Part shown: piece by piece, positions 3,490 to 61,127 of the stretch
Numbering within the stretch: the first letter of the stretch is position 1
Layout: each line of letters begins with the position of its first letter
Origin: a virus
UHGV virus genome: UHGV-1550212
DNA: 64,000 bases
Direction: 5' to 3' (one strand)
Translations under genes and position numbers: made by a program
The notes under the pieces: generated by a model
What the model saw: the letters and a program-made list of their open reading frames with translations, nothing else
Database searches by the model: none
What the model was told of the DNA's origin: nothing

Positions 3490-3518
3490 ATTGTACAACG
3501 CTTTGTGCACATTTGCAA
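3490..3518 (-). promoter_or_regulatory. sigma70-like promoter (TTGCAA-N17-TACAAT on coding strand)
   Basis: Plus-strand ATTGTA at 3490-3495 and TTGCAA at 3513-3518, spacer 17; upstream of 2973..3473. Confidence 0.5.
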
Positions 3519-6509: not shown

Positions 6510-7802
6510 CTACAACAATGACGGCACTCGTTGAGTTTCAAGTGGGTCGCTGACATTGATGCCTGTGTATGCAACAAGTCGTTGTATTGGGCCAAGTACG
6601 AGTTTTTCGAACATGAGTCGTTTGTTCATTGGCGGCACATCTGGCATATACTTCGGTGTCGGCATTTCGCCTGGTGCAAAGCCAAATGCATCGCAATATT
6701 GACGAGAGCCAATTGGTATATTTGACAAATCTGACTTTGCTCTGTCAACAAAGTAGTAGAACACTCGACCGCCTTCAATCAATGGGTATCGTGTTTCCAA
6801 TCCATGTGCTTTGACAAGACAGTTATGCCAACAACATGCTCTATATTGAGGCAGTACACCTTTTGCTAACTGCCATTCACCATCATAGCTTAGCACATAG
6901 TCATGATACTTGTTTGCATTGACATATGCACAAAGTTTCTCCAAGTCTTGCTCGGCTTCAAAGCGTTTCCATAATTTCTGTATGAGCTTTGGATATGTCG
7001 CAGAAGTTAATTCGCCTCTGAACATTTTCTTGAATGCATAATCAAGCATTTGTCTAACAAGCATTGACGAGCCTGTTTGAATAAGTTCGATGCCTTTGCC
7101 TTGAATGTGCTCAGTAGGGTCTTCGAATACTCGACCATCTACATATATTTGAGCCTTTAAGTACTTTTTCTTTTGGGCAAATAATGCAGTGTCAGAAATC
7201 GTTTCGAGGTCAAATAGCAAAATTGAATTGCCGTGGCGTTTTGCGAGGTCTGCTGCATATGCACCATTGAATAACTCTTCCATACGATATTTGAATATCG
7301 CAAGAATCAAGTCATACCAATTTTTGCCTATGTAGCCAATTGATTTGACAGTTGGCTCAAAGTGAATGTACAAAGAGTCTGTATCAATGTACAACACTTT
7401 GTCTTCATAAGGCTCTTGCTTTGGCGACACAGACAAATCAAAATTGCCCTTCAATTGTGGGTCATTACGCAGCTTTTCATGCAATTCATAATCACACCAC
7501 CACTTATTGTTGAGATAGTCATTTGCTACTCGTTCACCAAAGTGAATGAAGTTGCGGCCTTCAGCAGTAATTGATTCTGCAACTGCCATATTAAAGAAGT
7601 GATAGAAACGATTGCTTGTAGCGCCATATATTGAGTTTCGACAACATTTTGCTGAGACTTGCAGTCCTGCATGCTTTAGTGATTCTTGCATTGCAAAATC
7701 TCTCAATTCAAATAGACGTTCAGTAGACAACTGGCTTAAATCACCAGTCAAATCTACTCCATCTATTTCAATTTTTGACATATCTATCTGAGCTTCTGCC
7801 AT
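6510..7802 (-). CDS. family B DNA polymerase, C-terminal part (motifs B and C)
   Basis: Contains K-x3-NSxYG (KCCRNSIYGATSN), YIDTDS and KKKY motifs; has its own promoter (7824-7853) and terminator (6453-6494). Confidence 0.85.
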   Translation of the reverse strand: MAEAQIDMSKIEIDGVDLTGDLSQLSTERLFELRDFAMQESLKHAGLQVSAKCCRNSIYGATSNRFYHFFNMAVAESITAEGRNFIHFGERVANDYLNNKWWCDYELHEKLRNDPQLKGNFDLSVSPKQEPYEDKVLYIDTDSLYIHFEPTVKSIGYIGKNWYDLILAIFKYRMEELFNGAYAADLAKRHGNSILLFDLETISDTALFAQKKKYLKAQIYVDGRVFEDPTEHIQGKGIELIQTGSSMLVRQMLDYAFKKMFRGELTSATYPKLIQKLWKRFEAEQDLEKLCAYVNANKYHDYVLSYDGEWQLAKGVLPQYRACCWHNCLVKAHGLETRYPLIEGGRVFYYFVDRAKSDLSNIPIGSRQYCDAFGFAPGEMPTPKYMPDVPPMNKRLMFEKLVLGPIQRLVAYTGINVSDPLETQRVPSLL

Positions 7803-8839: not shown

Positions 8840-9214
8840 TCATCGATTGTCGCCTGACCCATGCAATACACCTCGCAATTTTCGAGACTGCAGTTTCTGA
8901 ATGTTAAGCTGACAAATGTCAGTTAAGCTGTAGCCCAAATCATGTGCAAGAGTTGCAGCATACCACATGACATCGCTGAGCTCTTTTGCGATTTCCTTGC
9001 GAATGTCTTCATTATCAAAATCACCATTCTTGTCTCGAATGACTTTTTTGACTTTGTCTGCAACTTCGCCTGCTTCACCCGTTAAGCCAAGTGTTGGATA
9101 GATAATTGCAGCTGATTTAGGATATACTGCGCTATCAAGCGCAGCAGTCTGATATTCATCAATAGTTGAAATCCAAGTGTGGTCGATTACGCCGTGTTCA
9201 TCTCGTTTAAGCAT
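8840..9214 (-). CDS. mazG: MazG-like nucleoside triphosphate pyrophosphohydrolase
   Basis: LGLTGEAGEVADKVKK ... EIAKELSDVMWYAATLAHDLGYSLTD is the typical all-alpha NTP-PPase pattern. Confidence 0.75.
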   Translation of the reverse strand: MLKRDEHGVIDHTWISTIDEYQTAALDSAVYPKSAAIIYPTLGLTGEAGEVADKVKKVIRDKNGDFDNEDIRKEIAKELSDVMWYAATLAHDLGYSLTDICQLNIQKLQSRKLRGVLHGSGDNR

Positions 9215-9215
9215 A

Positions 9216-9707
9216 TCATTTACGTTTTTGTTTGACTCTTAATCGTTTTTGCATAAATGCTCTTGTAGCTTCACCAAAAGCCATCTCGTCTCGTTCGCCA
9301 CCACAAAGCTTTGCAAGCTTATTGAATGTGTCTTGGTCAATCATTGTGTACGTTGAGTTGTTGACCACATGCAATGCAAACTGAATCAGCGGTGCGCCTG
9401 GCTGCAAGCAGAATGGCTCTTTACCTGCATTGTACACTGCAAGATGAATCTCGCCATGATAGTCTGAATCTACAAACTCACTTGTTTTGATGATAAGATG
9501 ATTTCGTGAAATGCCCGACTTATTGTAGGCAATCAATGCATGACCGGCAGGCACAAGTGCTTTGATGCCAGATGGAATTGCAATGCCCTCACCAGGTTGC
9601 AGCATTGTTTGCACAAAATCATTGGGTATGCAAAAGTCCCATGCGCCAGATTCTGCTGTTGACTTAAAAGGACTTTCTACATTTCTGCATTTTGCAAAGA
9701 ATAACAT
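9216..9707 (-). CDS. dut: dUTP diphosphatase (dUTPase)
   Basis: dUTPase-like motifs SGAWDF, VDSDYHGEI, LIQFAL and C-terminal GGERDEMAFGEATRAF. Confidence 0.7.
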   Translation of the reverse strand: MLFFAKCRNVESPFKSTAESGAWDFCIPNDFVQTMLQPGEGIAIPSGIKALVPAGHALIAYNKSGISRNHLIIKTSEFVDSDYHGEIHLAVYNAGKEPFCLQPGAPLIQFALHVVNNSTYTMIDQDTFNKLAKLCGGERDEMAFGEATRAFMQKRLRVKQKRK

Positions 9708-10095: not shown

Positions 10096-11601
10096 TTACA
10101 ATTTGATTGCGCCTCTACGAGCAAGCTCTTCTTCAATCAATCGAACATGATTGTTAGCATACCAAAATTGCAATTTTTTGTGATAATTGCGAACGTTGCC
10201 AAGCTGTTCTTGAGTTTCTTTATACATTGAAGGCTCTCTGTTGTCATACAGACAATTGTTGACTGACACAAAGTAATTTGGGTCTGCTTTGTAATGCTCA
10301 ATTTCATCAGGATTTGTTAAACGTCTAATAAAGTTGTCTGGTGAAATATTCGCCGAGCGCATACTTGACGGATACAATGAGTTTGCGTCAACACAGACAA
10401 CCATACGAGCCCAATGGTTAAATGGTTGCTTAACAAAGCCGCCCTCAAATGAATGTACTACATTCTCTGGGCCACCTTGAGCACATACAACTTTGCCGCC
10501 ATATTTGTTGTATAAGTATGTCATCATGACGCCCTCAGATTGCTTAACTGGTCCTTGGCAGTGATTCATGTCAATATTTGTCATATTTGACAATGACATC
10601 ACATTTGATATCAAGTCAGTTTTTGCAGCAATCATTGCATTGACCATAGTATCGACAGCATTGTATGCAATGAATGTGCATGGATGATACAAATACAGCT
10701 CTTTAAGTGTGCAATCATAGGGCAACTTACCTACGCCGAACATACGATGTGCAATGTAGTCAAGTCGCAATGATTCCTTTTGCCACACTGAATAGTCGTA
10801 TGTGTCCATGAGCTGCATGTAGTCATCAATGTACTTGTGATATGGCATACCATTGCCCCAGACAGTTCTGCCAACTGGAGATGCCAATGCTAAATCAATA
10901 TTGTGCATTGCGCATCGATTTTTGACATAGATGTTATCGAAGTCATTGATGTTCCAGCCTGTCAATGCAGGAATGTTTTTGAAGAGCTTAGTCACCCAAA
11001 AATGCAACAATTCATGCTCATTTGCATGTTGAAAAATTTTGACAGTTGGATGTTCTTTCAAATACGCAGCAAAGCAATGTTGACCCATATACTCTTGAAT
11101 GATGCCATTGACAAACTCAAATGCATCATCCAATGTTGGGTTTTGTTTGCCGCAGCTTTTGCGCAAATCATCATCATTCAACAAGTCAACAGTAGTCTGA
11201 ATGACACAATTGCATTGTTCATCGCATGTACTTATTGCATTAATGGGCATTTCAGCTTTGTCAGGCTTTGGAAAGCCATTGCCAATTTCAGTCTCAATAT
11301 CGTAAAAGTACAACTTTGGTCTACGATAAGCAAACAATTCAGCTTTGTCAGCTTCAGGCAATTCAAATAAGAATTGCAGCAAGTCAAATTGATTGAATCG
11401 TTTTGCTGTGACTCGAGTCACTGGCAATTTACGCCAATCTTGAATATCTGCATATTGAGGCTCTACGTGGTCTGATATTTGCCACACTGGAAATTGATAT
11501 GGCTGTTCACAGACTGGGTATGTTTTGATGTCAATGCCACCTTGCTCATTAACATATGAGACTTCAATGCCATGTGACAAATATGCTACGTCAACAATCA
11601 T
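10096..11601 (-). CDS. family B DNA polymerase, N-terminal part (3'-5' exonuclease domain and motif A)
   Basis: Exo I FYDIETE, Exo II NINDFD, Exo III YNAVDT, polymerase motif A DANSLYPS; stops ~100 aa after motif A; own promoter at 11630-11658. Confidence 0.85.
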   Translation of the reverse strand: MIVDVAYLSHGIEVSYVNEQGGIDIKTYPVCEQPYQFPVWQISDHVEPQYADIQDWRKLPVTRVTAKRFNQFDLLQFLFELPEADKAELFAYRRPKLYFYDIETEIGNGFPKPDKAEMPINAISTCDEQCNCVIQTTVDLLNDDDLRKSCGKQNPTLDDAFEFVNGIIQEYMGQHCFAAYLKEHPTVKIFQHANEHELLHFWVTKLFKNIPALTGWNINDFDNIYVKNRCAMHNIDLALASPVGRTVWGNGMPYHKYIDDYMQLMDTYDYSVWQKESLRLDYIAHRMFGVGKLPYDCTLKELYLYHPCTFIAYNAVDTMVNAMIAAKTDLISNVMSLSNMTNIDMNHCQGPVKQSEGVMMTYLYNKYGGKVVCAQGGPENVVHSFEGGFVKQPFNHWARMVVCVDANSLYPSSMRSANISPDNFIRRLTNPDEIEHYKADPNYFVSVNNCLYDNREPSMYKETQEQLGNVRNYHKKLQFWYANNHVRLIEEELARRGAIKL

Positions 11602-15540: not shown

Positions 15541-15567
15541 TGTAGTAGAGGTTTGTTGTGTTCTGTA

Positions 15568-15600
15568 TATTATGTTCGAATATATGAGGACATATATTAT
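15568..15600 (-). promoter_or_regulatory. conserved structured leader element, copy 3 (core only)
   Basis: Core TTATGTTCGAATATATGAG(G/A)ACATATATTAT with inverted repeat TATGTTC/GAACATA; in the 5' leader of 15304..15540. Confidence 0.45.
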
Positions 15601-15608
15601 ATATAGAT

Positions 15609-29010: not shown

Positions 29011-29039
29011 TGTTGTAGAGGTTTTATATTATATATTAA

Positions 29040-29155: not shown

Positions 29156-30214
29156 TTACTGCTTCAAGCCTGTGAACAGTTCATACTTGAATGCAGGCCC
29201 TGCTGTGTAAGCCTCAAAGTAGAAGTCACCAATATTGATGCTTGCAATAGCGTCATCGACAGCTTTCTTGTAGCCTACACGTTCAATTGTCTGCTTATCG
29301 CATTTACGCCAATATGTGCTGTGCATCATAAGCGTGGGTGATGCAGCATAGTCTACTGCAAGCTGTTGTTTTGCAGTGTCAATGTGATGTTCATAGATGT
29401 GCACATCATTGCCAGTCCAAATGAACTCTCTTGCCACACAGTTAGTCAATGTTGCAACAATATGTGTAAGCAATGCATATGATGCGATATTGATGGGCAC
29501 ACCAAGACACATGTCACAGCTACGCTGAGTAAGCGCACAGTCAAGCCACATGCTTGGTACTTGAGCAGAATCAAGGCATTCTGCAGAACCATCATGCACA
29601 AGCATGCTATCATTAGCAATCTGAATTCGTTCTTCAAGAGTCATTGGCTGACAATTGAACTGAAACAGCATATGACATGGCGGCAATGCCATCTGAGACA
29701 TTTGCGCAGGATTCCATGCAGACACGACTTTGTAGCGGCCAGTTGGATTGATGACAATGTCTTTAATGCAAGTTGCAAGTTGGTCAAATCCACTGTCATT
29801 GAAGTTGCGCCACTGATACCCATAGATAGGTCCGCAATCACCATACTCAGGTTTGCTGAATTTTGTGTTGTGCAGTTCTGTGCACCAAGTGTCAAAGTCG
29901 ACATCTTCACCTGGATGCAGCTTTTGCCAATGACGATATGCATCCTGATGCCAGAACTTTGTAATGCCAAGCGTGTCAAGCGTTTTGACATTAGTGTCAC
30001 CTGACATAAACCACAGAAGTTCTCCAATGACGCCTTTGACAAACATTCTCTTGGATGTCAACAGTGGAAAGCCTTTACGCAAATCAAATCGCATTGATTC
30101 TACAAACAATGACTTTGTGCGAGGCATGTTTTCACGAGCAGGTTCCTTAAATCTGCCATGCTCAATAACATTATTAAGTACTCTCAAGTACTCAGTGTCG
30201 TGTTTGATATTCAT
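29156..30214 (-). CDS. thyA: thymidylate synthase (ThyA family, dUMP-specific type)
   Basis: ThyA blocks GELLWFMSGDTN, GPIYGYQWR, SAWNPAQMSQMALPPCH, QRSCDMCLGVPINIASYALL (Asn retained), WTGNDVHIY; ~60-aa C-terminal extension. Confidence 0.85.
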   Translation of the reverse strand: MNIKHDTEYLRVLNNVIEHGRFKEPARENMPRTKSLFVESMRFDLRKGFPLLTSKRMFVKGVIGELLWFMSGDTNVKTLDTLGITKFWHQDAYRHWQKLHPGEDVDFDTWCTELHNTKFSKPEYGDCGPIYGYQWRNFNDSGFDQLATCIKDIVINPTGRYKVVSAWNPAQMSQMALPPCHMLFQFNCQPMTLEERIQIANDSMLVHDGSAECLDSAQVPSMWLDCALTQRSCDMCLGVPINIASYALLTHIVATLTNCVAREFIWTGNDVHIYEHHIDTAKQQLAVDYAASPTLMMHSTYWRKCDKQTIERVGYKKAVDDAIASINIGDFYFEAYTAGPAFKYELFTGLKQ

Positions 30215-32779: not shown

Positions 32780-32827
32780 TCTAAATGAGATTTAGATTAT
32801 GTTCGAATATATGAGAACATATATTAT
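32779..32827 (-). promoter_or_regulatory. conserved structured leader element, copy 1
   Basis: ~48-bp element with two inverted repeats (ATGTTC-N10-GAACAT and CTAAAT-CTC-ATTTAG) ending at the ATG of the Rad3/DinG-like helicase. Confidence 0.5.
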
Positions 32828-32837
32828 TTGTAAAAAT

Positions 32838-33437: not shown

Positions 33438-34319
33438 TTATCGTTTGAATTTGATGAAGTGTTCAGCATCAAGGCCCTCAAATATGTACGGGTCAAGAGT
33501 TTCCCAGAAGTTTGAGTATGTCGTTGTCTTTGCAATACTTGTCTGCTTTGACAAGTTCATGTTTGGATAGCCAAGCATTGCATAGTGTCGCTCATATATG
33601 TGCATTGACGTTGCATTATGCATATAAGCGCCAAGCTTAAGACCAAGTTCATTTGCGACAAGTTCTTGCAACAAAGTGAATGCAAACTGGTCGTTACAGA
33701 AGCCCCAAATGACATCATTGCTTCGCATATATGTTGTCAAGTACAGCTTATCACCACGAACATTGAAAACAAGATTCAATGTGCACGGCATATCTTTGCC
33801 AGTGTAGTTTGCATATTGCGGCTCATAAATGCTAATAACTGCTCGTCTTGTGCATTCATGATTTCGCAAACGTTCAATGACATCTGCAATCTGCTTGTGC
33901 CAAATTGCGCCATACTGTGAATTGACATTGACGCCATCATCACTGAACTGCTTCCAACGAGGCAAATAACGTTCAATGCATTCAACTGCAGGATTGGCTG
34001 TCATATACCATGCAAATTCTGCAGCAGCATTGAGCTTTTTCCATGGTCGTACATCAATCTTGATTTGTCGCTGTGAAGGGTCCTGAATAACTACAGACAC
34101 ATTCAGCAATTCTTTTGTTCGAGTCACTGTTTGTGCATTGTTGCCCTTTGATTCTACAAACTCACCTCTACAATGAAGTTCATACAAAATTGAGCGAAAT
34201 GCTTCTGTTGCAGTGTTTTCAACGATTGTCGTCTGTTGATAGCATAAATTTGACGACAATGCTTCAGCATCATTGTACTTTATGCTGTCATTGTCATAAG
34301 GTGAATTTTTTGTGTGCAT
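33438..34319 (-). CDS. ThyA-family pyrimidine hydroxymethylase/methylase, cytosine-specific type (dCMP hydroxymethylase-like)
   Basis: ThyA-like blocks EFAWYMTANP, YGAIWHKQ, TRRAVISIYEP, DMPCT (catalytic Cys), YMRSNDVIWGFCNDQFAF where the ThyA Asn aligns with Asp; start trimmed to 34319 to avoid a 116-nt overlap. Confidence 0.55.
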   Translation of the reverse strand: MHTKNSPYDNDSIKYNDAEALSSNLCYQQTTIVENTATEAFRSILYELHCRGEFVESKGNNAQTVTRTKELLNVSVVIQDPSQRQIKIDVRPWKKLNAAAEFAWYMTANPAVECIERYLPRWKQFSDDGVNVNSQYGAIWHKQIADVIERLRNHECTRRAVISIYEPQYANYTGKDMPCTLNLVFNVRGDKLYLTTYMRSNDVIWGFCNDQFAFTLLQELVANELGLKLGAYMHNATSMHIYERHYAMLGYPNMNLSKQTSIAKTTTYSNFWETLDPYIFEGLDAEHFIKFKR

Positions 34320-34344
34320 ATTTTGGGATGTTTGTTTTTTATTA

Positions 34345-35439
34345 TCATACAACGATAGTATCTCGTTTGCAATCTGTTTTGTCAAATATTGAACAACAAT
34401 ACGATGCAGATTGTTCTTTGATTTCAAGAGCTTCATCATTATCAAGTGATGAAATGCCATCTATGTATGCTTTTGCATTGCCAGCAATGTCATCATTTGT
34501 TAACAACGCTGCACGACGTTCAGTGCCAAAGAAGCCAAAGCACAATTGATGTTGCAGTGCTTCACGAGAAGTCTTGTCATCAAACTCTGATTTCATGTGT
34601 TGCATAAATTCGACAATATCATCAATGTCGCATTGAGTAAAGTCAATGCACAATTTATGCATGTACTTGAATCGTTTGTAGTCTGTTGCAAGAATTTCTG
34701 GGTGCACAATGAACAACGTCTTTTTGCTGTCTATTGGATTTGCAATGACTGATGCTTGAACATAATCGACAAGCATACCAGATTCACGAAGTTGCTCAAT
34801 TGTTTTGCCAAACACATGCCCAAGCGTGTCATCAAACCACTTCAAGTATGCTTCACTGTCTTCATCTTTTGACGCGCCAACAATGTAAATCTCATTGACT
34901 CCAAGTGCTTTGAGACGAGTATCAGACAACATAGTATTCAATTGATGCTGCACGTACAGCATTGGGCTGCTATGCAAAACCGTTTTAACAATCTCACAAG
35001 CAATGTCCATATATGCATAGTCAAGCTTTGCAGATTTTGACACATACACTGCACGTTGCTGCAATGGCTCAATTGCCGAGCATGTAGTTACAAAGTTGCC
35101 AACACATTCTGCTACTGCAATGTCATGCAAGTCATCTGCAATGTACACAATACTTGACAAGTCATCAAATGTTTGAACAAGTTGCTGAAGCTTTGTTTTG
35201 TAATTGCAGAGCATCAATGACTTGATGTTGCAATTACTTAGCATTGTCTTGATGAGTCGTTGACCTGCTTCAGTGCTGTCACCAGAAATGACATGCACAT
35301 CGCAGTCAAACCAGTTCAGCATGTCAATTGCATGCCGAACACCATATTGCATTTGTTTTGCAAACTTACCAGATTCATTGAACAGCATTTCACCTGACAT
35401 AATGCCGTCAAAGTCACATACGATTTGAAGTCTGTCCAT
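34345..35439 (-). CDS. HAD-superfamily (KdsC-like) sugar-phosphate phosphatase domain protein with unknown C-terminal domain
   Basis: IVCDFDGIMSGEMLFNESGKF (DxDG motif I), VHVISGDS, YIADDLHDIAV (motif IV), resembling KdsC/YrbI-type phosphatases. Confidence 0.5.
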   Translation of the reverse strand: MDRLQIVCDFDGIMSGEMLFNESGKFAKQMQYGVRHAIDMLNWFDCDVHVISGDSTEAGQRLIKTMLSNCNIKSLMLCNYKTKLQQLVQTFDDLSSIVYIADDLHDIAVAECVGNFVTTCSAIEPLQQRAVYVSKSAKLDYAYMDIACEIVKTVLHSSPMLYVQHQLNTMLSDTRLKALGVNEIYIVGASKDEDSEAYLKWFDDTLGHVFGKTIEQLRESGMLVDYVQASVIANPIDSKKTLFIVHPEILATDYKRFKYMHKLCIDFTQCDIDDIVEFMQHMKSEFDDKTSREALQHQLCFGFFGTERRAALLTNDDIAGNAKAYIDGISSLDNDEALEIKEQSASYCCSIFDKTDCKRDTIVV

Positions 35440-39730: not shown

Positions 39731-39731
39731 A

Positions 39732-39781
39732 TTCTAAATGAGATTTAGATTATGTTCGAAATATATGAGAACATATATTAT
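39732..39781 (-). promoter_or_regulatory. conserved structured leader element, copy 2
   Basis: Near-identical to the 32779-32827 copy (one A insertion); immediately upstream of the SbcD-SbcC ATG. Confidence 0.5.
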
Positions 39782-39789
39782 ATGTTGAT

Positions 39790-39818
39790 ATTGTACAACA
39801 TATGTTATCATTTTGCAA
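39790..39818 (-). promoter_or_regulatory. sigma70-like promoter (TTGCAA-N17-TACAAT)
   Basis: Upstream of the SbcD-SbcC gene; leader contains the conserved element. Confidence 0.55.
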
Positions 39819-40155
39819 GCATTTTGATGATTGCATCTATCACAGTTTCACTGAGCAAGTAGTAGACAACGCTTATCAGCAATGATATCAGTACTGCAGC
39901 TGTGATAAATTGCAACGCATTCACAATTGCACGCACAAATGTTATCTGCGTGTTGTATGCAAGCACTATGCAGCATAGCACAATAATGACACACCAGACT
40001 ACAATTGCATATGCAGGCATCAATGAATTTGTCCATATGCAGTACAATACAGTAATTAGCATCAAAAATGCTATTGCTCTGATAACTGACACAATGATGT
40101 CTATGTAAGGCTTCATTGCACGCAAATGAACTCTTGGTTTATGTTGCTTCATCAT
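39808..40155 (-). CDS. multi-pass membrane protein
   Basis: 115 aa, highly hydrophobic. Confidence 0.5.
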   Translation of the reverse strand: MMKQHKPRVHLRAMKPYIDIIVSVIRAIAFLMLITVLYCIWTNSLMPAYAIVVWCVIIVLCCIVLAYNTQITFVRAIVNALQFITAAVLISLLISVVYYLLSETVIDAIIKMLAK

Positions 40156-41390
40156 GACTTTATGTACAATTCTGCAAGTTGTCTGGTGTACAGTCGTGGA
40201 TTATGATATGCTTTCCAATACGCAGTAGACTTTATTGCAGCAAGAATTTCATCATAATGTTTGACTGCTTCTGCTACAACTTCATCAAGCACGCTCAAAT
40301 CTTCTACACTGACAAGCAACCATTTTTCTACAATATCAATGAACTCCTGATTGCAATTGAAGCCATACTTGTAGTTGCAAGTATCAAGTACAAGTGGAAT
40401 GCAATCATTTGTCAATGCTTCAAAAAATCTACGAAGACTGAAACAATTCTCATCATATGATGGAATGCTCAATGTAAACTTGGCAGTCTTGATGAGTTGC
40501 AAATACTCTTCGTATGGAATCAGAGGACCATTGTGCTTCCATTGATTATTGTGTCGTCTTGTCGTGTACTTGAACAAAAACTTTGAATTGTCAAGTTCAC
40601 AAAGATGGTCCATGCGTAAAATGTAGTTATAGCGGTCTCTTCTGTCAGGCCAACTGTCAGTCATCGCAAACACAAAGTCTCTTTGCTTGTCACATTTTGC
40701 TGACATACCTCTATGCTGACACATGCAATACCAATATTGCTGCGATGGGCTGAACTCAAACTTTGAATGATGCTCACTTCCATCTTTGCATTGCTGAACA
40801 TAAATGTTGTCAGGCACAAAGTGAAAATAAAAGTGTCGAATTTGCAAGTCATTGATGTAGTCAAGCTTATGCTGCAATGGGTCTTCACAGAAATTGTAAC
40901 ACTGAATATGCTTTGCTGCTGCGTACTCAGCAACTATGAACGTGCACATCCATTGCAATGCAATATCTTCACTCTTCAAAAAGTTTACAAGCGGCTCATT
41001 TGGATGCGCTTTGCATTCATTGAACATTTTGTACCACTTGCATTGCTCCATATCGTACTTTGATACTGTATTGCCATTAAAGAACGACACAGTGTCAATT
41101 TTGAATGCATCAAGTTGTTTATGCACAATGTCAAGTGCTTGTGCGTATGTGATTGTCTCATCAGACATTATCTGCGCAAACTTGATTGGATGCGCATGCA
41201 AATTTGCGATAGTGTCTGCCGACATTTTACGCTGTGTGTGATAATCGACATACAAAAACTGACACTTGTCTGTAAGCAATTCAAGCATTGCTACAGATTT
41301 CCATCGAATTGCTTGAAAGAAATTGAAGTGTGCAGTTTGAAAGATGAGATGCGTAGGTTTATCAGAATGAGTCAAAGTTTGCATGGACAA
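40152..41390 (-). CDS. putative glycosyltransferase-like protein (cassette copy A1)
   Basis: Paralog of 44432..45988 (shared EDPLQHKL, PSQQYWY, FTLSIPSYDENCFSLRRFFEAL...CIPLV); the last block resembles a GT-B C-terminal motif. Confidence 0.4.
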   Translation of the reverse strand: MSMQTLTHSDKPTHLIFQTAHFNFFQAIRWKSVAMLELLTDKCQFLYVDYHTQRKMSADTIANLHAHPIKFAQIMSDETITYAQALDIVHKQLDAFKIDTVSFFNGNTVSKYDMEQCKWYKMFNECKAHPNEPLVNFLKSEDIALQWMCTFIVAEYAAAKHIQCYNFCEDPLQHKLDYINDLQIRHFYFHFVPDNIYVQQCKDGSEHHSKFEFSPSQQYWYCMCQHRGMSAKCDKQRDFVFAMTDSWPDRRDRYNYILRMDHLCELDNSKFLFKYTTRRHNNQWKHNGPLIPYEEYLQLIKTAKFTLSIPSYDENCFSLRRFFEALTNDCIPLVLDTCNYKYGFNCNQEFIDIVEKWLLVSVEDLSVLDEVVAEAVKHYDEILAAIKSTAYWKAYHNPRLYTRQLAELYIKS

Positions 41391-42547
41391 ATGTCGCAGT
41401 TATGTTGATGTTTGTGTTTATTTATGAAGTCATATGTCACTGCAAAAAAGTGCTTTGCAATGTCATATCGAGTTTTCAAATATGCTGCTTGGCGTTCACA
41501 AAACGCTGCATAAATGTCTGGGTGTCGTTTGAATGCAGCAATGCGTTGCTGTACTTGTTCTGCAGAATGTACATATGACACTTTGCTCAAATATGCATCA
41601 TCTGCAAATAATCGTCTGTCTTTGTCAACTGCGCAATCAACAAAAGTTGCAATTCGTGCAACAATGGCTTCACCAACACGATTTGGCATCAACCCATATT
41701 GCTCATATTGTTGGTCACCGATAGCAATGTGCGCTGCTGCATATGACATTGCATATGGCACACTATAAAATGGCACACTAAAATCAAATGAGCAATTTGA
41801 CTGTAGTAGTTGCGTTTGTGCATCAGACAATCTACTTGTCAAGTTGCCTGTATGTTTGTGCTCACCAAGAAAACTTGAGCGACAACCTGAATCTACATAG
41901 TATCGAATGACTTTGTTTATGCGACTGTCAGATAGCATATGCCAATCTCTTGTAGCATATATCAAGTCTACTGTTTTTGCACCAATATGACGAGGCTCTA
42001 TCGCAACATTGCTGTATGTTGGCAGCATGAACAATGGCAGCCATTTGACATTGTTGAACACTGAATGTTCATTTGACAAATTCATGCACTGGCTAAGTTC
42101 AAGTACTGGCTCATCATACACGCCATGCAGTTCAACTCTGCCTGCATGCACAAAGTTGACACGCTTAAATGGAAATCGCATATCAGTGCAAACCGTCATT
42201 CTTGCTGCAGTAGACATTCGCCACATAGCATGCAGCTTAACAACTGCTTCGGCTTGAGGTCGAGGCAGCATATTTAGCAAATCAATCCAGCCACCCCACA
42301 AAATCCAAACATCATTTGAACAGATGTTGAATTGCAAACTCAATATGTCTTCTACTGTTGCAGCAATGATGTCATGCCCATTGATGCTTGCAAGGTGCTT
42401 TCGTTGATTTGCAATAAGAATGACTTGACTGAACGGAGACTCTGGAAATGACACAAGCGCCTTTGCAAACAACACGGGTTCTTGTGATACCAAGTTGTTT
42501 GAGTATGGGTCGATTATGCAATCAAGCTTGTGTATGAAAAGTCTCAT
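41372..42547 (-). CDS. hypothetical enzyme-like protein (cassette copy B1)
   Basis: Paralog of 45985..47151 (shared N-terminus LFI.K.D, TDxRF.F, L.PNR). Confidence 0.45.
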   Translation of the reverse strand: MRLFIHKLDCIIDPYSNNLVSQEPVLFAKALVSFPESPFSQVILIANQRKHLASINGHDIIAATVEDILSLQFNICSNDVWILWGGWIDLLNMLPRPQAEAVVKLHAMWRMSTAARMTVCTDMRFPFKRVNFVHAGRVELHGVYDEPVLELSQCMNLSNEHSVFNNVKWLPLFMLPTYSNVAIEPRHIGAKTVDLIYATRDWHMLSDSRINKVIRYYVDSGCRSSFLGEHKHTGNLTSRLSDAQTQLLQSNCSFDFSVPFYSVPYAMSYAAAHIAIGDQQYEQYGLMPNRVGEAIVARIATFVDCAVDKDRRLFADDAYLSKVSYVHSAEQVQQRIAAFKRHPDIYAAFCERQAAYLKTRYDIAKHFFAVTYDFINKHKHQHNCDICPCKL

Positions 42548-43278
42548 TTTGCAGACGATTCAAAAAATTTGTAGACATCACAGTTAGCAATGTGGTCATT
42601 CCAAGCATCTTCAGAGTCTGCAACAAAGCCACAATGACAGCGTTTTGGCTGCCAAACTGGTTCAACTACTGCAGGCATTGCTTCTTCAATAGTGTTTGCA
42701 GGTTCATTATCTGCTGGCAATACTTCAACGTCTTCAACTTGTGCTGCATCTTGTTGTGCACGCTGCTCAATGACATTGCCCTCAAAGTCAAACTGAATGC
42801 CAGCTTGTTCTGCTTTTGTACGATTGTTACGAGCTACGAACAAATACGCAAAGATGAATTCGACAAGCGCTATGGCAAGTGACTTCAGTGCATTGACAAG
42901 AAGCATGATGCCCGTTGACAAGTGGCCGTCAAAGCTCAAAAATACGAACACGCATGTAAAGCATGACATAAACACTGCAATCAGTGGAATGTTCTTGTAT
43001 TTTGGCAACAAATCAGAGTTGACTGATGTAAGCAACACAACGAATTGATAACCTATTGCAAGCCAATAGTCGCCAAACACTGCATAGATATGCGTAGTGA
43101 TGCCAATAAGAAATGTGATAGTCACAATCATAATGAGCAACACACTTGTCAGAAAGTCTGCAATAGAATTGCTGAGCTTGTCATACCAGTGTTTGTTGAC
43201 AATTGATGTGTTGGCTACGCGCACTTTACTAAGTGCATCTATGCCGCTTTTGATATTTGATTGTGCTTTCATACACAT
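42544..43278 (-). CDS. membrane protein with cytoplasmic acidic C-terminal domain
   Basis: 244 aa, about four TM helices, then Cys/His-containing tail (CHCGF...HIANCD). Confidence 0.5.
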   Translation of the reverse strand: MCMKAQSNIKSGIDALSKVRVANTSIVNKHWYDKLSNSIADFLTSVLLIMIVTITFLIGITTHIYAVFGDYWLAIGYQFVVLLTSVNSDLLPKYKNIPLIAVFMSCFTCVFVFLSFDGHLSTGIMLLVNALKSLAIALVEFIFAYLFVARNNRTKAEQAGIQFDFEGNVIEQRAQQDAAQVEDVEVLPADNEPANTIEEAMPAVVEPVWQPKRCHCGFVADSEDAWNDHIANCDVYKFFESSAK

Positions 43279-43284
43279 ATAATG

Positions 43285-43422
43285 TTATATCATATCTACA
43301 CACAAAGCAAATGCTACTGCAAGTGCAGCCATAATTGCATATACGACTATCGATGCAATATAATCTGATTCAGGATTCCACTTATCAGGTGTGTTAAGCT
43401 TGTGATACTTGTCTCGTCTCAT
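43285..43422 (-). CDS. possible small membrane protein (45 aa)
   Basis: Hand-translated MRRDKYHKLNTPDKWNPESDYIASIVVYAIMAALAVAFALCVDMI; sits just downstream of a terminator-like hairpin; below the track length cutoff. Confidence 0.25.
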   Translation of the reverse strand: MRRDKYHKLNTPDKWNPESDYIASIVVYAIMAALAVAFALCVDMI

Positions 43423-43430
43423 CTTGAGTC

Positions 43431-43481
43431 AAAAAATGATGGCTGCTGCTACATTTTGTGAAATCATGTGCAGCAGCCATC
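43431..43481 (-). terminator. terminator-like hairpin (possible attenuator or sRNA 3' end)
   Basis: 12-bp perfect stem GATGGCTGCTGC/GCAGCAGCCATC with 20-nt loop, followed by UUUUUU on the minus strand; lies ~55 nt downstream of a promoter. Confidence 0.5.
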
Positions 43482-43530
43482 TGGCAGGTTTCTTGCTTTG
43501 TAAAGCTTGGATAGAGGATGGATTTTATAT
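43431..43530 (-). ncRNA. candidate ~100-nt small RNA or transcription attenuator (speculative)
   Basis: Defined only by promoter (-10 at 43537-43542) upstream and a strong hairpin/U6 terminator at its 3' end; no sequence family recognised. Confidence 0.2.
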
Positions 43531-43536
43531 GTTGAT

Positions 43537-43565
43537 ATTGTACAACATGCAAAATGCATTTGCAT
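43537..43565 (-). promoter_or_regulatory. sigma70-like promoter (ATGCAA-N17-TACAAT) with adjacent 17-bp tandem repeats
   Basis: Followed ~55 nt downstream by the terminator-like hairpin 43438-43481. Confidence 0.4.
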
Positions 43566-43594
43566 TTTGATACAACATGCATTTTGATACAACA
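43561..43594. repeat. perfect 17-bp tandem direct repeat x2 (TGCATTTTGATACAACA)
   Basis: Read directly; overlaps the -35 region of promoter 43537-43565, next to an AAAATGCA-TT-TGCATTTT palindrome. Confidence 0.7.
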
Positions 43595-43601
43595 TATATT
43601 G

Positions 43602-43817
43602 TCATTTTGCACAGTCTGAGGCAATCAAATCTTTGTCAAAGCATTCATCTATAATGTCTTCAATAAGATACGCTTCGACATTGTTAAGCTTCAAGATATC
43701 TACGAGTTTTGCTTTGATATCGCAAGCTAATGCAGATTCAACTGTATGCAATATGACTGATGATGCGACATGCTTGTCTGTCATCATTTGTAATTGCTGT
43801 GGTGTTACTCTACTCAT
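43602..43817 (-). CDS. hypothetical small protein
   Basis: 71-aa ORF with 4-nt overlap to the upstream kinase gene. Confidence 0.35.
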   Translation of the reverse strand: MSRVTPQQLQMMTDKHVASSVILHTVESALACDIKAKLVDILKLNNVEAYLIEDIIDECFDKDLIASDCAK

Positions 43818-44386
43818 GCGCCAAGTTCAGCTAAGCATTTTAGCACATTGTCTTGCAGACTTACATTGTTGTCGATTTCGACAATATGCAATGGTGAGTT
43901 CTTTCGCCACTCATCATATGCAGCAATCATTTTATTGCGTTTGTTGACATCAATGTTGACATCGCCACAAAAGTTATCAACAAAATCTGGTGCAACATCA
44001 CGCTTGCATAAGAACACTATATGCGGCAATGTTGCAAGCTTCTTTTCATATGCTTCAAAGAATGCTTGATGCTTATCAGTGTGCAACTCTTTGTAAAGCG
44101 TTGTGTTAAAGATTTGATGTGTGATGAACGAACGGTCACACAAAAATGTTGCTTTGCCAAAGCCTTTAGAGTCATTTCCAATGAACTCTAAGAAGAAGCG
44201 CCAATCATAAAAGAACGCTTCATTGAGGTCCCAAGGTTCGGGCATTGGGTCATCACCTGACTCATGCTGTTGCCACCAAGAACGAGATGTTCGTTTGCAA
44301 TTGATAAACCATGGGCGCCACTTCATCAATTCATTGATGAGTGTTGTTTTGCCTGAAGCTTCTACACCTTCAAATATCGCTATCAT
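43814..44386 (-). CDS. P-loop deoxynucleoside monophosphate kinase-like protein
   Basis: Walker A IFEGVEASGKTT and a CDRSF (DRY/DRS-like) motif as in thymidylate/dNMP kinases. Confidence 0.6.
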   Translation of the reverse strand: MIAIFEGVEASGKTTLINELMKWRPWFINCKRTSRSWWQQHESGDDPMPEPWDLNEAFFYDWRFFLEFIGNDSKGFGKATFLCDRSFITHQIFNTTLYKELHTDKHQAFFEAYEKKLATLPHIVFLCKRDVAPDFVDNFCGDVNIDVNKRNKMIAAYDEWRKNSPLHIVEIDNNVSLQDNVLKCLAELGA

Positions 44387-44411: not shown

Positions 44412-44440
44412 ACAGTACAACGTAGTTATGCTCATTGCAC
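44412..44440 (-). promoter_or_regulatory. weak sigma70-like promoter (GTGCAA-N17-TACTGT)
   Basis: Upstream of the dNMP kinase gene; -10 is a poor match. Confidence 0.3.
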
Positions 44441-45988
44441 TTCTACGAATGGCTCTTTCAACACAAAGCTGTCACCATTGCAACATGCGGCTGAGCCATC
44501 GTCTGCATCAAGTGCACATGACATATCAGACTTGCAGAACTTGCAATATAAACATGACCATGCATGACTCATGAAGTTGTTTGCTTCACAAATTGCGCAA
44601 CGCTCATGCATAAGTGCATTGTCGCAATTATCACAAGACTTCTTGATTGGCACAGTTTTGTTGATGTATGCAAGATGCAATGCAATATCATACACAAAGT
44701 CACCCGTATATTGCTGAATGAAATCAGTATGCCACAACTCTTTTAACAATTGTGCATGTCTATATGGCTGAACAATGTCTTCAAGATGCTGCAAGTCATC
44801 ATCGCTAACCATGAGCTTCTTAATGACAAATTGTTTGAACTGTGGCCATCTGTCAAACATATAGAGTTTGCATGAGTTGTGCACAAGTGGAACACAGCCA
44901 AGCACAATGCTTTCACAGAATCTACGCAAACTAAAACAGTTTGCATCATATGACGGCACAATCAATGTGAATCTGCTATGCTTGATGAGTTCAAGGTATG
45001 TGTCATATGGCAGTAGCTTATCTGACAATTGCTGTTGTTGTTTGTCTCTGCTGAAAAATCTGAACACAATACCCTTGTCAATTGCATCTTGATTGTGCAG
45101 ATGCATGAGTTTGTTGATGAGTTCTGTGCGTTCAGTTTTGTCTCGCCAAGTATTCGTCAATGCAAATGCAAAATTCAGTCGCTTGTCATCAAACGTCGCT
45201 TCAATATCATTCCAAGTTTTGTCATGCAAATACCAGTATTGCTGTGATGGGCACCATCCATAATATGCAATAGCATCTTGTTCTGCTGTAACGTCATACA
45301 CATATGCAGAATTGTATTCAAGGCCAAGCCTTTTGACGTTGTTGCAGTCATGAAAGTACCAATGCTGCACTTTGAATATCTTTGATGCACTGAATGCGCT
45401 TTCATATGGCCCTGAATAGCGATAGTCAATGTAATTGAGCTTGTGCTGCAATGGGTCTTCGACAAAGTTGTTTATGACTGTGCCTTGTTGTTTGCCCTTA
45501 GTCTTGCGAGCATTCAATGCAACATTGTATTGCATGATGACTGACAGCATCTCATACACTACATACATGAGTGCTTTGTAGACTGAGCCTGCTGCGTCAA
45601 TTAGTGGCAAATCACGTTTGACTGATGTAGCGCCAAATGTCTTGCAATATGCAGAAAATGTGTCAAGTTCTGCTTGCTGAAATGAATTGCATGCACCATT
45701 GAATATGTTGAATGTTGCAATGTAGCTCATATTGCAAGATGTCATTGACATATCAAGACGCTTCATAATGTCGACAATGCGACATTGAGCAAAATCTGAC
45801 ACATCAACATATTTGACATGATGGCCTGATGTAGTCAAGCCATCTGCGACATCTTTCATCTGTGGCACAAAGCCTACAACAATGAATAAGTCATCTTTGT
45901 TTGCTCGTTCAAACATTGCTGCACTTTTCCAAGTCAATGAATTGAAAAAGTCTATGTAGCCAGTTTGAGTGATTATATGCGTTCTCAT
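44432..45988 (-). CDS. putative glycosyltransferase-like protein (cassette copy A2) with Cys-rich C-terminal extension
   Basis: Paralog of 40152..41390 (EDPLQHKLNY, PSQQYWY, FTLIVPSYDANCFSLRRFCESIVLGCVPLV); extra CDNCDN...C cluster. Confidence 0.4.
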   Translation of the reverse strand: MRTHIITQTGYIDFFNSLTWKSAAMFERANKDDLFIVVGFVPQMKDVADGLTTSGHHVKYVDVSDFAQCRIVDIMKRLDMSMTSCNMSYIATFNIFNGACNSFQQAELDTFSAYCKTFGATSVKRDLPLIDAAGSVYKALMYVVYEMLSVIMQYNVALNARKTKGKQQGTVINNFVEDPLQHKLNYIDYRYSGPYESAFSASKIFKVQHWYFHDCNNVKRLGLEYNSAYVYDVTAEQDAIAYYGWCPSQQYWYLHDKTWNDIEATFDDKRLNFAFALTNTWRDKTERTELINKLMHLHNQDAIDKGIVFRFFSRDKQQQQLSDKLLPYDTYLELIKHSRFTLIVPSYDANCFSLRRFCESIVLGCVPLVHNSCKLYMFDRWPQFKQFVIKKLMVSDDDLQHLEDIVQPYRHAQLLKELWHTDFIQQYTGDFVYDIALHLAYINKTVPIKKSCDNCDNALMHERCAICEANNFMSHAWSCLYCKFCKSDMSCALDADDGSAACCNGDSFVLKEPFVEVQ

Positions 45989-47151
45989 GATTTGAATGTT
46001 TGTTCAAGAATTGTATAGCACTGTGCAATCATTGTTGCAAGAGCTTTTTGCTGAAGCTGTTTGCAATTTGAAGATATTGTGTATTGCTGACGCTCAGTTG
46101 TAGTACTGCTTAATGTCGCAAATTGCAGGTACTCATCTTCTGACATGATATCAGCAAACAATGCAGACAATTCATAATCTACAATGACATTTGAGCAGTT
46201 TGCAAGTACGCCTTCAACCCATCGATTTGGCAACAAACATGCTTGCACATACAATGAATCGCCGACTACAAGATTGCACATTGACTGCGACATTACATAC
46301 GTCATCATGTCATATGGCACTTTGTACTTAAGTGTGAAGTTTTGTGCTGCTGACTTAATTGCTTGCAGAATTGTGTCATCAAGATATGATGTTATAAGGC
46401 AAGTATTGTATGCCTGCATAATGTAACGCTCAATCACGCTTCTACGATACTCGTCAAGATATGTGAAACCTGCACAACTTGCACAACATGCATATTGCTG
46501 CTTTATGTCAGCAAAGCTACACACATGCGCTTCAATTGCATTTTGCATTGTTGCTTGTCGTTTGAGCAATCTTGGCTCTTTAATGCATTGAAGCTTCAAT
46601 GCATTGACTGCTGCAATGATTTGCAATGGCACAAACACGCATTGAGACTCATCAAGCCAAGCATACTTGAGATTTTTATGTTGACACAGATGCGTAATGT
46701 TGTCTTTTTGTGATTCTAAGTACTCTTTGTAATTATGCAATCGCTTTGTCAATGTGCACTCTTTGTCAAAATCAAATCGCAAATCAGTTGTTAGTGTAAA
46801 TTTGCGAACATTTGACAAGCACCATGCTTTGAATGCATTCCACAGAACATCTTGCTGAAATTCTGAACAATGTTCAAGAGCAGCCTTTGAGCCCTGCCAG
46901 AATATTGCGCAATCATCTGATTTTGCACACTTCAGCATATCTTGCCATGCATGTATGCTATTGATGATATGCACTTTATTATGCACAAGCTCATTAAGTG
47001 TTGCATGCTTGTTCTCAGGGTCGCCAAACACGTATACTGTATCAAACATTGTTTGAACAAACCCTGCAAATGCAATGGGTTCTGTATGTTTAAGATGCTG
47101 TATGTCTGAACGCACACATGTGTCAAATTTCAAAATGAAGAGTTTGCTCAT
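45985..47151 (-). CDS. hypothetical enzyme-like protein (cassette copy B2)
   Basis: Paralog of 41372..42547; promoter at 47181-47210. Confidence 0.45.
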   Translation of the reverse strand: MSKLFILKFDTCVRSDIQHLKHTEPIAFAGFVQTMFDTVYVFGDPENKHATLNELVHNKVHIINSIHAWQDMLKCAKSDDCAIFWQGSKAALEHCSEFQQDVLWNAFKAWCLSNVRKFTLTTDLRFDFDKECTLTKRLHNYKEYLESQKDNITHLCQHKNLKYAWLDESQCVFVPLQIIAAVNALKLQCIKEPRLLKRQATMQNAIEAHVCSFADIKQQYACCASCAGFTYLDEYRRSVIERYIMQAYNTCLITSYLDDTILQAIKSAAQNFTLKYKVPYDMMTYVMSQSMCNLVVGDSLYVQACLLPNRWVEGVLANCSNVIVDYELSALFADIMSEDEYLQFATLSSTTTERQQYTISSNCKQLQQKALATMIAQCYTILEQTFKS

Positions 47152-47848
47152 ATGCTTTGCAATTATCTATTACATGTTGATATTGTACTTCATCTATGAT
47201 GTGATTTGCAATGACACCATATGACGTGTCATACATTGGCATCTTCTCATATGACAATGCTGCGTCAAGATTGCATATCACATAATTGCAATGCACAATG
47301 TCATCTACATTGTCACTAACTGCTACGATATTGACGCAATTTGCAAGAAATGCATCATCAAAGTCTACTTGATTGCATGCAACCTCATAATCTGCAGCAC
47401 TTCTTGGGTACCAATATAACTCAATGCCGGCACTACTAAGTAGTCGCAAGCCATCTATGTGATGATACAAGTCAACAAAATGCACTTGCTTAACGCCTGC
47501 TTGCAAAATAAGCTTTGCGCAATCAATGCATGGACTATATGTTACATATAGCACTGCGTCATTTGCAGTCGCATTGCCATATTTGCACAGCTTCATCAAT
47601 GCATTTGATTCTGCATGCAAAACTTCTTTGTTGGTTTTGATGCCTGCTGATGTTGCATGTTCACAACAATTTGACATGCCAGTTGGCATGCCATTGTAGC
47701 CATCTGAAATTATGCAGCCATCTTTTACAAGCAATGCGCCGACTTTTGCTCGCTGAGCATGTGAATTTAATGACCAGAGCTCAGCCATTTTAAGATATAT
47801 GAGATTTCGTTGAAACCACTTTGTTTCAGACCAAGTTAGCCATTTCAT
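47123..47848 (-). CDS. dCMP deaminase (zinc-dependent cytidine/deoxycytidylate deaminase family)
   Basis: HAESNAL and YSPCIDCAKLI zinc-binding motifs; ~90-aa C-terminal extension. Confidence 0.8.
   Translation of the reverse strand: MKWLTWSETKWFQRNLIYLKMAELWSLNSHAQRAKVGALLVKDGCIISDGYNGMPTGMSNCCEHATSAGIKTNKEVLHAESNALMKLCKYGNATANDAVLYVTYSPCIDCAKLILQAGVKQVHFVDLYHHIDGLRLLSSAGIELYWYPRSAADYEVACNQVDFDDAFLANCVNIVAVSDNVDDIVHCNYVICNLDAALSYEKMPMYDTSYGVIANHIIDEVQYQHVIDNCKAYEQTLHFEI
47181..47210 (-). promoter_or_regulatory. sigma70-like promoter (TTGCAA-N18-TACAAT)
   Basis: Upstream of 45985..47151, inside the 3' end of the dCMP deaminase gene. Confidence 0.45.
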
Positions 47849-49317: not shown

Positions 49318-49346
49318 ATTGTACAACATAAAGTGCATACTTGCAC
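49318..49346 (-). promoter_or_regulatory. sigma70-like promoter, distal of a tandem pair (GTGCAA-N17-TACAAT)
   Basis: ~53 bp upstream of the first copy; a third, degenerate unit overlaps the terminator palindrome. Confidence 0.45.
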
Positions 49347-49374
49347 TTTGTGTTGCTAAAAATATCGTTATTGT

Positions 49375-61089: not shown

Positions 61090-61127
61090 TGTTGTAGAGG
61101 TTTTATATCATATATTGATATATGATA

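Follow-up and report, generated by a model that had tools for sequence, protein, structure and literature searches.

A promoter placed directly before a strong terminator-like hairpin in an uncultured gut jumbo phage: a candidate leader terminator for membrane-protein and glycosyltransferase-like genes

Why would a phage place a promoter about 50 nucleotides (nt) ahead of a strong terminator hairpin, with no gene between the two? The question is raised by a locus on the minus strand of virus genome UHGV-1550212, of which we analysed a stretch of 64,000 nt (the window; coordinates refer to it unless a relative is named). A preliminary description had proposed here a promoter (43537-43565), a 12-bp perfect stem followed by U6 (43438-43481) and, behind these, a small membrane open reading frame (ORF). 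All are present, on the minus strand, and go well past what chance would give. Our reading, to which we give a probability of about 0.55, is that the hairpin is a conserved promoter-proximal (leader) intrinsic terminator, which would end the upstream transcription unit and leave five downstream genes dependent on read-through. The parts of the putative element are:

43531-43565, minus strand: match to the consensus promoter of the phage, 34.3 bits by position weight matrix (PWM)
43483-43530, minus strand: unstructured, G-poor 5' leader, folding at -6.3 kcal/mol without the terminator
43437-43482, minus strand: predicted terminator hairpin with a 12-bp GC-rich stem, a bulged A, four apical pairs and an 11-nt loop
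43431-43436, minus strand: T6 tract (U6 in RNA), one base past the stem, invariant in all relatives including the distant L012

The promoter was scored against a phage-specific motif. An element of the form (G/T)TGCAAA-N16-TA(C)AAT, its -10 usually preceded by GTTG or GTAG, recurs in the minus-strand intergenic gaps of the phage, and the weight matrix built from these elements matches 18 sites on the minus strand and one, weakly, on the plus strand, with 0-2 matches in 20 shuffles. The consensus sites lie mostly in short gaps upstream of gene starts, with the following 5' ends of the 35-nt matches:

3518, 7852, 8834, 11658, 13751, 15637, 29069, 32866, 34372, 39818, 43565, 43612, 49293, 49346, 52873, 55800 and 61156, minus strand: consensus promoter sites by weight matrix

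At the locus the -35 (ATGCAA) is at 43565-43560, followed by a 17-nt spacer ending in GTTG and by the -10 (TACAAT) at 43542-43537. A second -10-like hexamer, TATAAA, lies 7 nt past the -10 (43529-43524); a TATAAT-like hexamer usually stands at about this distance in the promoters of the phage, including those without terminators. Transcription would start near 43530 or 43517. The exact string TGCAAA-N12-GTTGTACAAT occurs 11 times in the contig of a relative, and none of the other contigs among 2.9 million viral ones has it more than once; the 16 bases of the promoter core are invariant in six relatives. The motif appears to be specific to this phage lineage. A generic sigma-70 scan did not flag this promoter, because its -35 matches TTGACA at only three of six positions, and that scan found fewer sites than it did in shuffles. 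The site is genuine as a match to the phage-specific consensus and is presumably used as a promoter.

Some promoters of the phage have leaders in common. A near-identical leader, ATATATGT(T/C)CTCATATATT(T)CGAACATAAT..., follows three of them (39731-39783, 32780-32831 and about 15560-15602, minus strand). At 39.8k and 32.8k it measures about 50 nt, runs on to CTAAATCTCATTTAGAAT-ATG and has two small hairpins (TATGTTC/GAACATA and TCTAAAT/ATTTAGA), forming a common 5' untranslated module. The leader end ATATAAAACCTCTACAACA-ATG is common to two genes (29011-29034 and 61090-61121, minus strand).

The arms of the hairpin at our locus (43470-43481 and 43438-43449) pair perfectly over 12 bp, and 8 of the 12 basal pairs are G-C; beyond a one-base bulge, four apical pairs extend the stem. 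Its free energy is -27.6 kcal/mol (z = -6.1), and none of 200 shuffles folds as well. The stem is followed by an A and then by T6 (43436-43431), with an ATG at 43422, 10 nt past the T-run and 16 nt from the end of the hairpin. The A and U6 (43437-43431) are invariant in seven relatives. The structure has the stem of an intrinsic (Rho-independent) terminator and a U-tract that suits one (4-6 bases or more, starting no further than 2 nt from the stem), and it would be expected to terminate transcription in vivo. On the minus strand of the window, 13 compact hairpins fold at -15 kcal/mol or below and are followed by a T-rich tail, the one at 43482-43437 being the strongest. Six stand 8-160 nt upstream of a consensus promoter, as in an ordinary terminator-then-promoter junction, and the remainder include hairpins within gene arrays, far from promoter matches. 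Of the 13, only the hairpin at 43482-43437 is preceded at 48 nt by a promoter without an ORF in the interval, and it is the only strong terminator between promoters 49293 and 39818. The usual order is inverted here: promoter, terminator and then, almost at once, a start codon.

Two other terminator hairpins of the window, 16 kb apart and both upstream of promoters (49411-49382 and 33054-33025, minus strand), are near-identical, with the sequence GCAAGCAGACTGCAATTG(C/T)AGTCTGCTTG and a T-run. CTGCTGC/GCAGCAG is a building block of several terminator stems.

Syntenic contigs were reached through homologues of the 244-amino-acid (aa) membrane protein encoded downstream. Close relatives are L009, L010 (95%), L011 (93%), L055 (91%), L059 and the IMG/VR locus L007, and a distant one is L012 (62% protein identity); contigs reached through the upstream kinase-like gene stop short of the locus. 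The order of promoter, leader, hairpin, T6 and small ORF is kept in all seven. In L012 a 21-bit promoter is followed after 35 nt by a TGGCUGCUG/CAGCAGCCA hairpin with U6 and then by the homologue of the small ORF; its leader is mostly diverged, and AACCTGCCA, the 9-bp core stem (TGGCTGCTG / CAGCAGCCA) and T6 are kept. Among the six close genomes, 2 of 104 columns vary over the core promoter, leader, stem arms and T-run-to-ATG stretch, against 50 of 350 in the two flanking ORFs (Fisher p = 1.6e-4). The leader segment 43530-43482 accounts for 2 variable sites in 49, and the stem arms and the T-run-to-ATG stretch are invariant. The apical and loop region has 5 of 23 columns substituted and four further indel columns, giving three length variants. 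Invariant stems with a free loop would be the pattern expected if only the stem and U-tract matter. A search for the hairpin pattern in 2.9 million viral contigs and JGI metagenomes found it in this lineage only (L007, L055, L059), the other hits being chance or coding matches.

The locus occupies a 179-nt gap (43423-43601) between a 71-aa and a 45-aa ORF, the latter followed by the 244-aa membrane protein gene. The flanking genes are:

43602-43817, minus strand: upstream 71-aa ORF from the ORF list, called as a gene in L009, L010, L011 and L012
43285-43422, minus strand: 45-aa small membrane protein gene with a C-terminal transmembrane helix, an intact ORF in relatives
42544-43278, minus strand: 244-aa polytopic membrane protein, second of the five genes behind the hairpin (41 homologues, synteny)
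39808-42547, minus strand: two glycosyltransferase-like genes (391 and 412 aa) and a 115-aa gene, from Pfam and PHROG matches and promoter positions

The 45-aa ORF is a real gene, since it is intact in five genomes (at 45-49 aa), keeps a KW..SDY.ASIV.Y motif that is found also in the 62% relative, and has a C-terminal transmembrane helix. In L059 (about 830-836, contig coverage 2.7) its codon 15 reads TGA for TGG, a sequencing error or a pseudogenised copy. The downstream unit runs to the next consensus promoter (39818-39784); between 43437 and 39818 there is no promoter match of 12 bits or more, the sole hit scoring 10.9 bits at 42078. The upstream unit, of about 6 kb, holds deaminase, glycosyltransferase and kinase genes.

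In the reading that we prefer, the consensus promoter would start an RNA whose first 50 nt or so are unstructured, the polymerase would then transcribe the very stable hairpin and U6 (43482-43431), and most transcripts would end at U6, releasing a leader RNA of about 85-100 nt. The upstream 6-kb unit should likewise be stopped by the hairpin, because this is the only strong terminator between the two promoters named above. The five genes behind it (for the 45-aa and 244-aa membrane proteins, the two glycosyltransferase-like proteins and the 115-aa protein) have no recognisable promoter of their own and so would be expressed only by read-through, which we infer to feed them. The hairpin would act both as an insulator and as an attenuator that sets or gates the level of the downstream genes, and the read-through might be constitutive leakage or might require an antitermination factor of phage or host.

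Several points weigh against this reading. Relatives at about 50% identity (L013-L021, L061 and L062) have a plain promoter right before the membrane gene and no hairpin, so the promoter-then-terminator arrangement appears dispensable for that gene; they also have no separate small ORF, and hence do not extend the comparison. The stem pairs never vary, leaving no covariation to read. Intrinsic terminator loops are typically 3-8 nt long, and the apical loop, 11 nt in the predicted fold and differing by up to 4 nt among close relatives, exceeds the textbook length. Setting a promoter right ahead of a strong terminator would seem a waste if read-through were not regulated, and among the window proteins no NusG/KOW-like or Q-like antiterminator was found. 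The usual promoter of Bacteroidota, to which the host probably belongs, is unlike the phage motif (G/T)TGCAAA-N16-TAcAAT. Lastly, the phage is uncultured, and the reading draws on sequence only.

The inverted order appears to be a recurrent design in the lineage, since a second module was found in a relative about 98% identical to the window (IMG/VR contig 3300045988_149023, locus L063, outside the window; reverse strand, about 440-670). It consists of a triple promoter-like array, a 53-nt leader and a terminator (CAATGCTCAGACT/AGTCTGAGCATTG with T5, -19.5 kcal/mol), with an ATG 46 nt later that opens the reading frame of a protein with a DUF5856-like domain (at least 493 aa). Promoter-then-terminator order was thus seen at 2 of about 30 promoter sites examined. 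The 53-nt leader has an 8-bp hairpin of its own, and an HNH/homing-endonuclease-like ORF lies directly upstream of the module.

The preliminary description had called the locus a small RNA or an attenuator. This stands as a level of description; the two were not told apart, and no alternative fold, leader peptide or antisense target was found. An alternative anti-terminator fold, which it had proposed looking for, did not appear: folded without the 3' arm, the leader reaches -6.3 to -6.9 kcal/mol and forms no structure competing with the terminator, and RNAalifold found the terminator as the sole structure. An RNA-switch attenuator (riboswitch, T-box or leader peptide) is absent by these predictions, because the leader without the 3' arm folds weakly and leaves the 5' arm free. 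No leader ORF stays in frame across the relatives, owing to loop indels of +3 and -1 and to inserts of 30, 46 and 47 nt. We rejected two ORFs, one of 76 aa that crosses the gap (43394-43624) and one of 27 codons that begins in the hairpin: both are shifted in frame in relatives, and in L012 the ORFs at this place do not exceed 29 codons. Rfam gave nothing at gathering score and sub-threshold chance matches only at a permissive threshold, and a tRNA/tmRNA search gave nothing meaningful. Nor did complementarity to phage mRNAs, another check put forward with the preliminary description, reveal a target above chance in the window; the best duplex of the conserved 5' half with 71 window start regions has -20.1 kcal/mol, against a shuffled mean of -20.2 kcal/mol. 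Members of the NusG/KOW, Q-like, AlpA, sigma and RNA polymerase families were sought among the roughly 68 proteins of the window, itself part of a genome of about 175 kb, and none was found.

The region over and upstream of the -35 differs between relatives. Three features of the window lie there:

43561-43594, minus strand: two perfect 17-nt tandem copies of ATGTTGTATCAAAATGC (TRF repeat-finder score 70)
43550-43569, no strand: palindrome CAAAATGCA-AA-TGCATTTTG overlapping the -35, with 9-nt arms at 43550-43558 and 43561-43569 and a 2-nt spacer
43578-43612, minus strand: residual upstream promoter copy, 29.3 bits by PWM, with the -35 GTGCAAA and the spacer kept and the -10 degraded to TATCAA

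The zone 43547-43598 is an indel hotspot. Two copies of the 17-mer occur in the window only; L055, L059 and L007 have one, as has the IMG/VR contig of the 98% relative, and L011 has none. The insert of L055, L059 and L007 measures 30 nt, one 17-mer plus AAATGCATTTTGC, and leaves a residual half-promoter there too; L009 and L010 carry a different, 46-nt version, which in L009 resembles the promoter array of L063. L011, with no insert, has a single promoter of 43.3 bits, the best of all, whose -35 falls in the stop-codon region of the 71-aa ORF; the last codons and stop of that ORF (GTGCAAAATGA) contain the ancestral -35 element. The uninterrupted form is ancestral, because the outgroup L012 has the same simple layout as L011. 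The insert splits this ancestral promoter, the upstream remnant keeping the old -35 and the downstream working copy taking ATGCAA as a new one. A similar insert of about 30 nt occurs at the equivalent of the promoter at 39818 in L004 and L009 and is absent from the window, L011 and L055; the equivalent of the promoter at 3518 is a tandem promoter in L095. Since the 17-mer is present zero, one or two times in relatives 93-99% identical and other promoters have similar inserts that come and go, the repeats are a strain-specific promoter duplication, produced by recurrent duplication or recombination among dispersed promoter copies, and not a conserved operator array. The 17-nt repeat and the palindrome belong to a recent insert and are not needed for the element. 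These copy-number alleles show fast rearrangement of the promoter regions of these phages, and they caution against taking perfect repeats beside promoters for binding arrays. Another hairpin loop that is an indel hotspot occurs in the relatives at about 50% identity: in L014 (about 2890-2925), and not in L015-L017, a tandem duplication of 15 nt lies in the loop of a terminator-like hairpin upstream of the membrane gene (arms AAATGCAATTGCAAG / CTTGCAATTGCATTT).

What else could the promoter region and the hairpin be? The repeats and palindrome had been described as a plausible regulator binding array, and they are indeed as described: CAAAATGCA stands twice in direct and once in inverted orientation within 37 bp across the -35, with a similar palindrome over the -35 of promoter 49346 and inserts at other promoters in relatives that could represent a spreading binding site. 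That they serve a DNA-binding regulator as an operator or iteron array, or mark a replication origin, is nevertheless highly improbable given their varying copy number in near-identical genomes; L011 has neither repeats nor palindrome and yet the better promoter, the right arm of the palindrome is merely the common promoter spacer (C)ATTTTGCATGTTG, the 17-mer recurs nowhere else in the window even within two mismatches, and GC skew has no inflection at the locus, on which ground an origin was rejected. Another alternative is a regulated antitermination switch of the lambda Q or AlpA type. Here a factor would use a DNA site within or close to the promoter, together with a promoter-proximal pause, to load on the RNA polymerase that starts there and render it resistant to the hairpin; polymerases arriving from upstream would be stopped. 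The defining layout is present, with 48 nt and no conserved ORF between promoter and terminator, and it recurs in the second module; the TATAAA lies where lambdoid late promoters have their sigma-dependent pause elements, and the palindrome lies over the -35. Such a switch is still unlikely, as is loading through a promoter-embedded site: a second -10-like element follows most promoters of the phage, even terminator-less ones, the palindrome is lost with the repeats in L011 and changed from G to A at one position in L007, the closest relative, no Q, AlpA or NusG-like protein was found among those of the window, and the genes downstream are not a late operon. Apart from these alternatives, a palindrome AAAGTGCA-N4-TGCACTTT at 49330-49349 was noted to overlap the -35 of the upstream member of the tandem promoter pair 49346/49293.

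Two further explanations concern the RNA itself. It may belong to a stand-alone gene for a small RNA of about 100 nt that acts in trans on host or phage mRNAs, the terminator being its 3' end. A strong, in the window duplicated, promoter, the lack of an ORF, a strong terminator and a product of 85-100 nt would suit such a gene, as would the unusually conserved unstructured 5' half in close relatives and the similar-length RNA expected from L063. We consider it unlikely, slightly more so than the antitermination switch, in that the 5' half is not conserved in L012, its best duplex with window start regions equals shuffled controls and no Rfam family matches; moreover, the ATG of a conserved gene 10 nt past the U-tract leaves no space for a promoter of that gene, so the RNA would also be its leader. 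Alternatively, the hairpin might not terminate at all and might be a 5' stabilising or processing structure, with the U-rich stretch enhancing translation of the small ORF, the host being one without Shine-Dalgarno sequences. Its position 16 nt before the ATG and the invariance of the stretch leading there agree with this, as do the scarcity of Shine-Dalgarno motifs and the A/U-rich upstream regions of the window genes and the two other leaders with small hairpins just before the ATG. However, hairpins of the same build with T-runs sit at expected terminator positions elsewhere in the genome, and the one at 43482-43437 is the strongest of its class with the best U-tract, which makes a non-terminating role very unlikely. 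A leader terminator with read-through thus remains our preferred reading.

A bolder proposal, which we regard as unlikely, is that the two modules are dedicated regulatory devices, either Q/AlpA-like promoter-specific antitermination switches or genes for abundant phage RNAs of about 100 nt. Either device, if real, would set when the membrane and glycosyltransferase genes of a DNA-hypermodification cluster are expressed, in a host of Bacteroidota type; to our knowledge neither mechanism has been described for phages in such a host. More generally, the promoter consensus, the terminator set and the likely unit boundaries provide a first transcription map for an uncultured gut jumbo phage family, and they mark two places where expression would have to pass a strong terminator. 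If read-through there is regulated, the two places would open a way into antitermination control in phages whose hosts (probably Bacteroidota) do without Shine-Dalgarno sequences, and into how a DNA-modification gene cluster is timed.

Among known systems, the locus most resembles leader intrinsic terminators (constitutive attenuators), which likewise have a GC-rich stem and then a U-tract between promoter and first gene; as there, downstream genes would need read-through and a short leader RNA would be released. It differs in its longer loop and in having no known effector, and its termination is predicted. Promoter-loaded antitermination by Q and AlpA has been described (PMC6606751, PMC7969949, PMC9371919), and lambda PR'-tR' (6S RNA) with Q and the Pseudomonas AlpA system share with our locus a promoter followed by an intrinsic terminator without an intervening gene, as well as a promoter palindrome and, within the initially transcribed region, a -10-like element. 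In contrast to these, neither Q nor AlpA was found among the window proteins, a close relative does without the palindrome, most promoters of the phage have the -10-like element, and the downstream genes encode membrane and glycosyltransferase-like proteins rather than a late lysis or structural operon. Riboswitch, T-box and leader-peptide attenuators also place a terminator in the 5' leader, whereas here there is no anti-terminator fold, conserved leader ORF or Rfam match, and the leader is unstructured upstream of the hairpin and diverged in the 62% relative. Polysaccharide operon leaders that depend on NusG paralogues, RfaH with ops and the Bacteroides UpxY proteins (PMC11685472), offer an analogy in that a long leader precedes glycosyltransferase and membrane-protein genes that would need early termination to be suppressed, and for UpxY also in a Bacteroidota-like host, which is here only probable; unlike those, our locus has no adjoining NusG-like gene and no ops-like element was identified in it. 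The two building blocks also make up at least six other junctions of the window, in the ordinary terminator-then-promoter order between transcription units; at our locus the order is inverted, and the inversion is conserved and found also at a second locus.

The genes of the window are almost all on the minus strand, and their products identify the window as part of a large phage genome that serves replication and nucleotide metabolism. Among them are a split DNA polymerase, helicases, an SbcC-like nuclease and a gp32-like protein, with two thymidylate-synthase homologues, dUTPase/DCD-like, MazG and dCMP-deaminase proteins and a P-loop kinase; four glycosyltransferase-like paralogues are also encoded. 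Among cultured phages the nearest, with a protein identity of 25-31%, are jumbo phages of Chryseobacterium, Tenacibaculum, Flavobacterium and 'Sphingomonas' PAU. The close uncultured relatives are metagenome sequences, one record being labelled gut metagenome, and megablast of 6 kb against phage records gave no match. Shine-Dalgarno-like 4-mers precede 2 of 59 window gene starts (background 5.5%), and the regions upstream of gene starts contain 43% A. Because these 4-mers occur only at background and in view of the hosts of the relatives, the host is probably Bacteroidota-like. The promoter consensus of the phage looks sigma-70-like despite this probable host.

The DNA polymerase appears to be split between ORFs 6510-7802 and 10096-11601, about 2.3 kb apart, with four genes in between (a 275-aa ORF, MazG, the dUTPase-like gene and a 116-aa ORF). 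The gene set of the window suggests that DNA bases are hypermodified. It combines two thymidylate-synthase homologues, one canonical and one diverged, with dCMP deaminase, dUTPase/DCD-like protein and MazG, together with a nucleotide-kinase-like P-loop protein (genes at 29156-30214, 33438-34460, 47123-47848, 9216-9707, 8840-9214 and 43814-44386), and the four glycosyltransferase-like paralogues (40152-41390, 41372-42547, 44432-45988 and 45985-47151), one of which matches the PHROG for beta-glucosyltransferase. Two membrane protein genes lie in the middle of this set.

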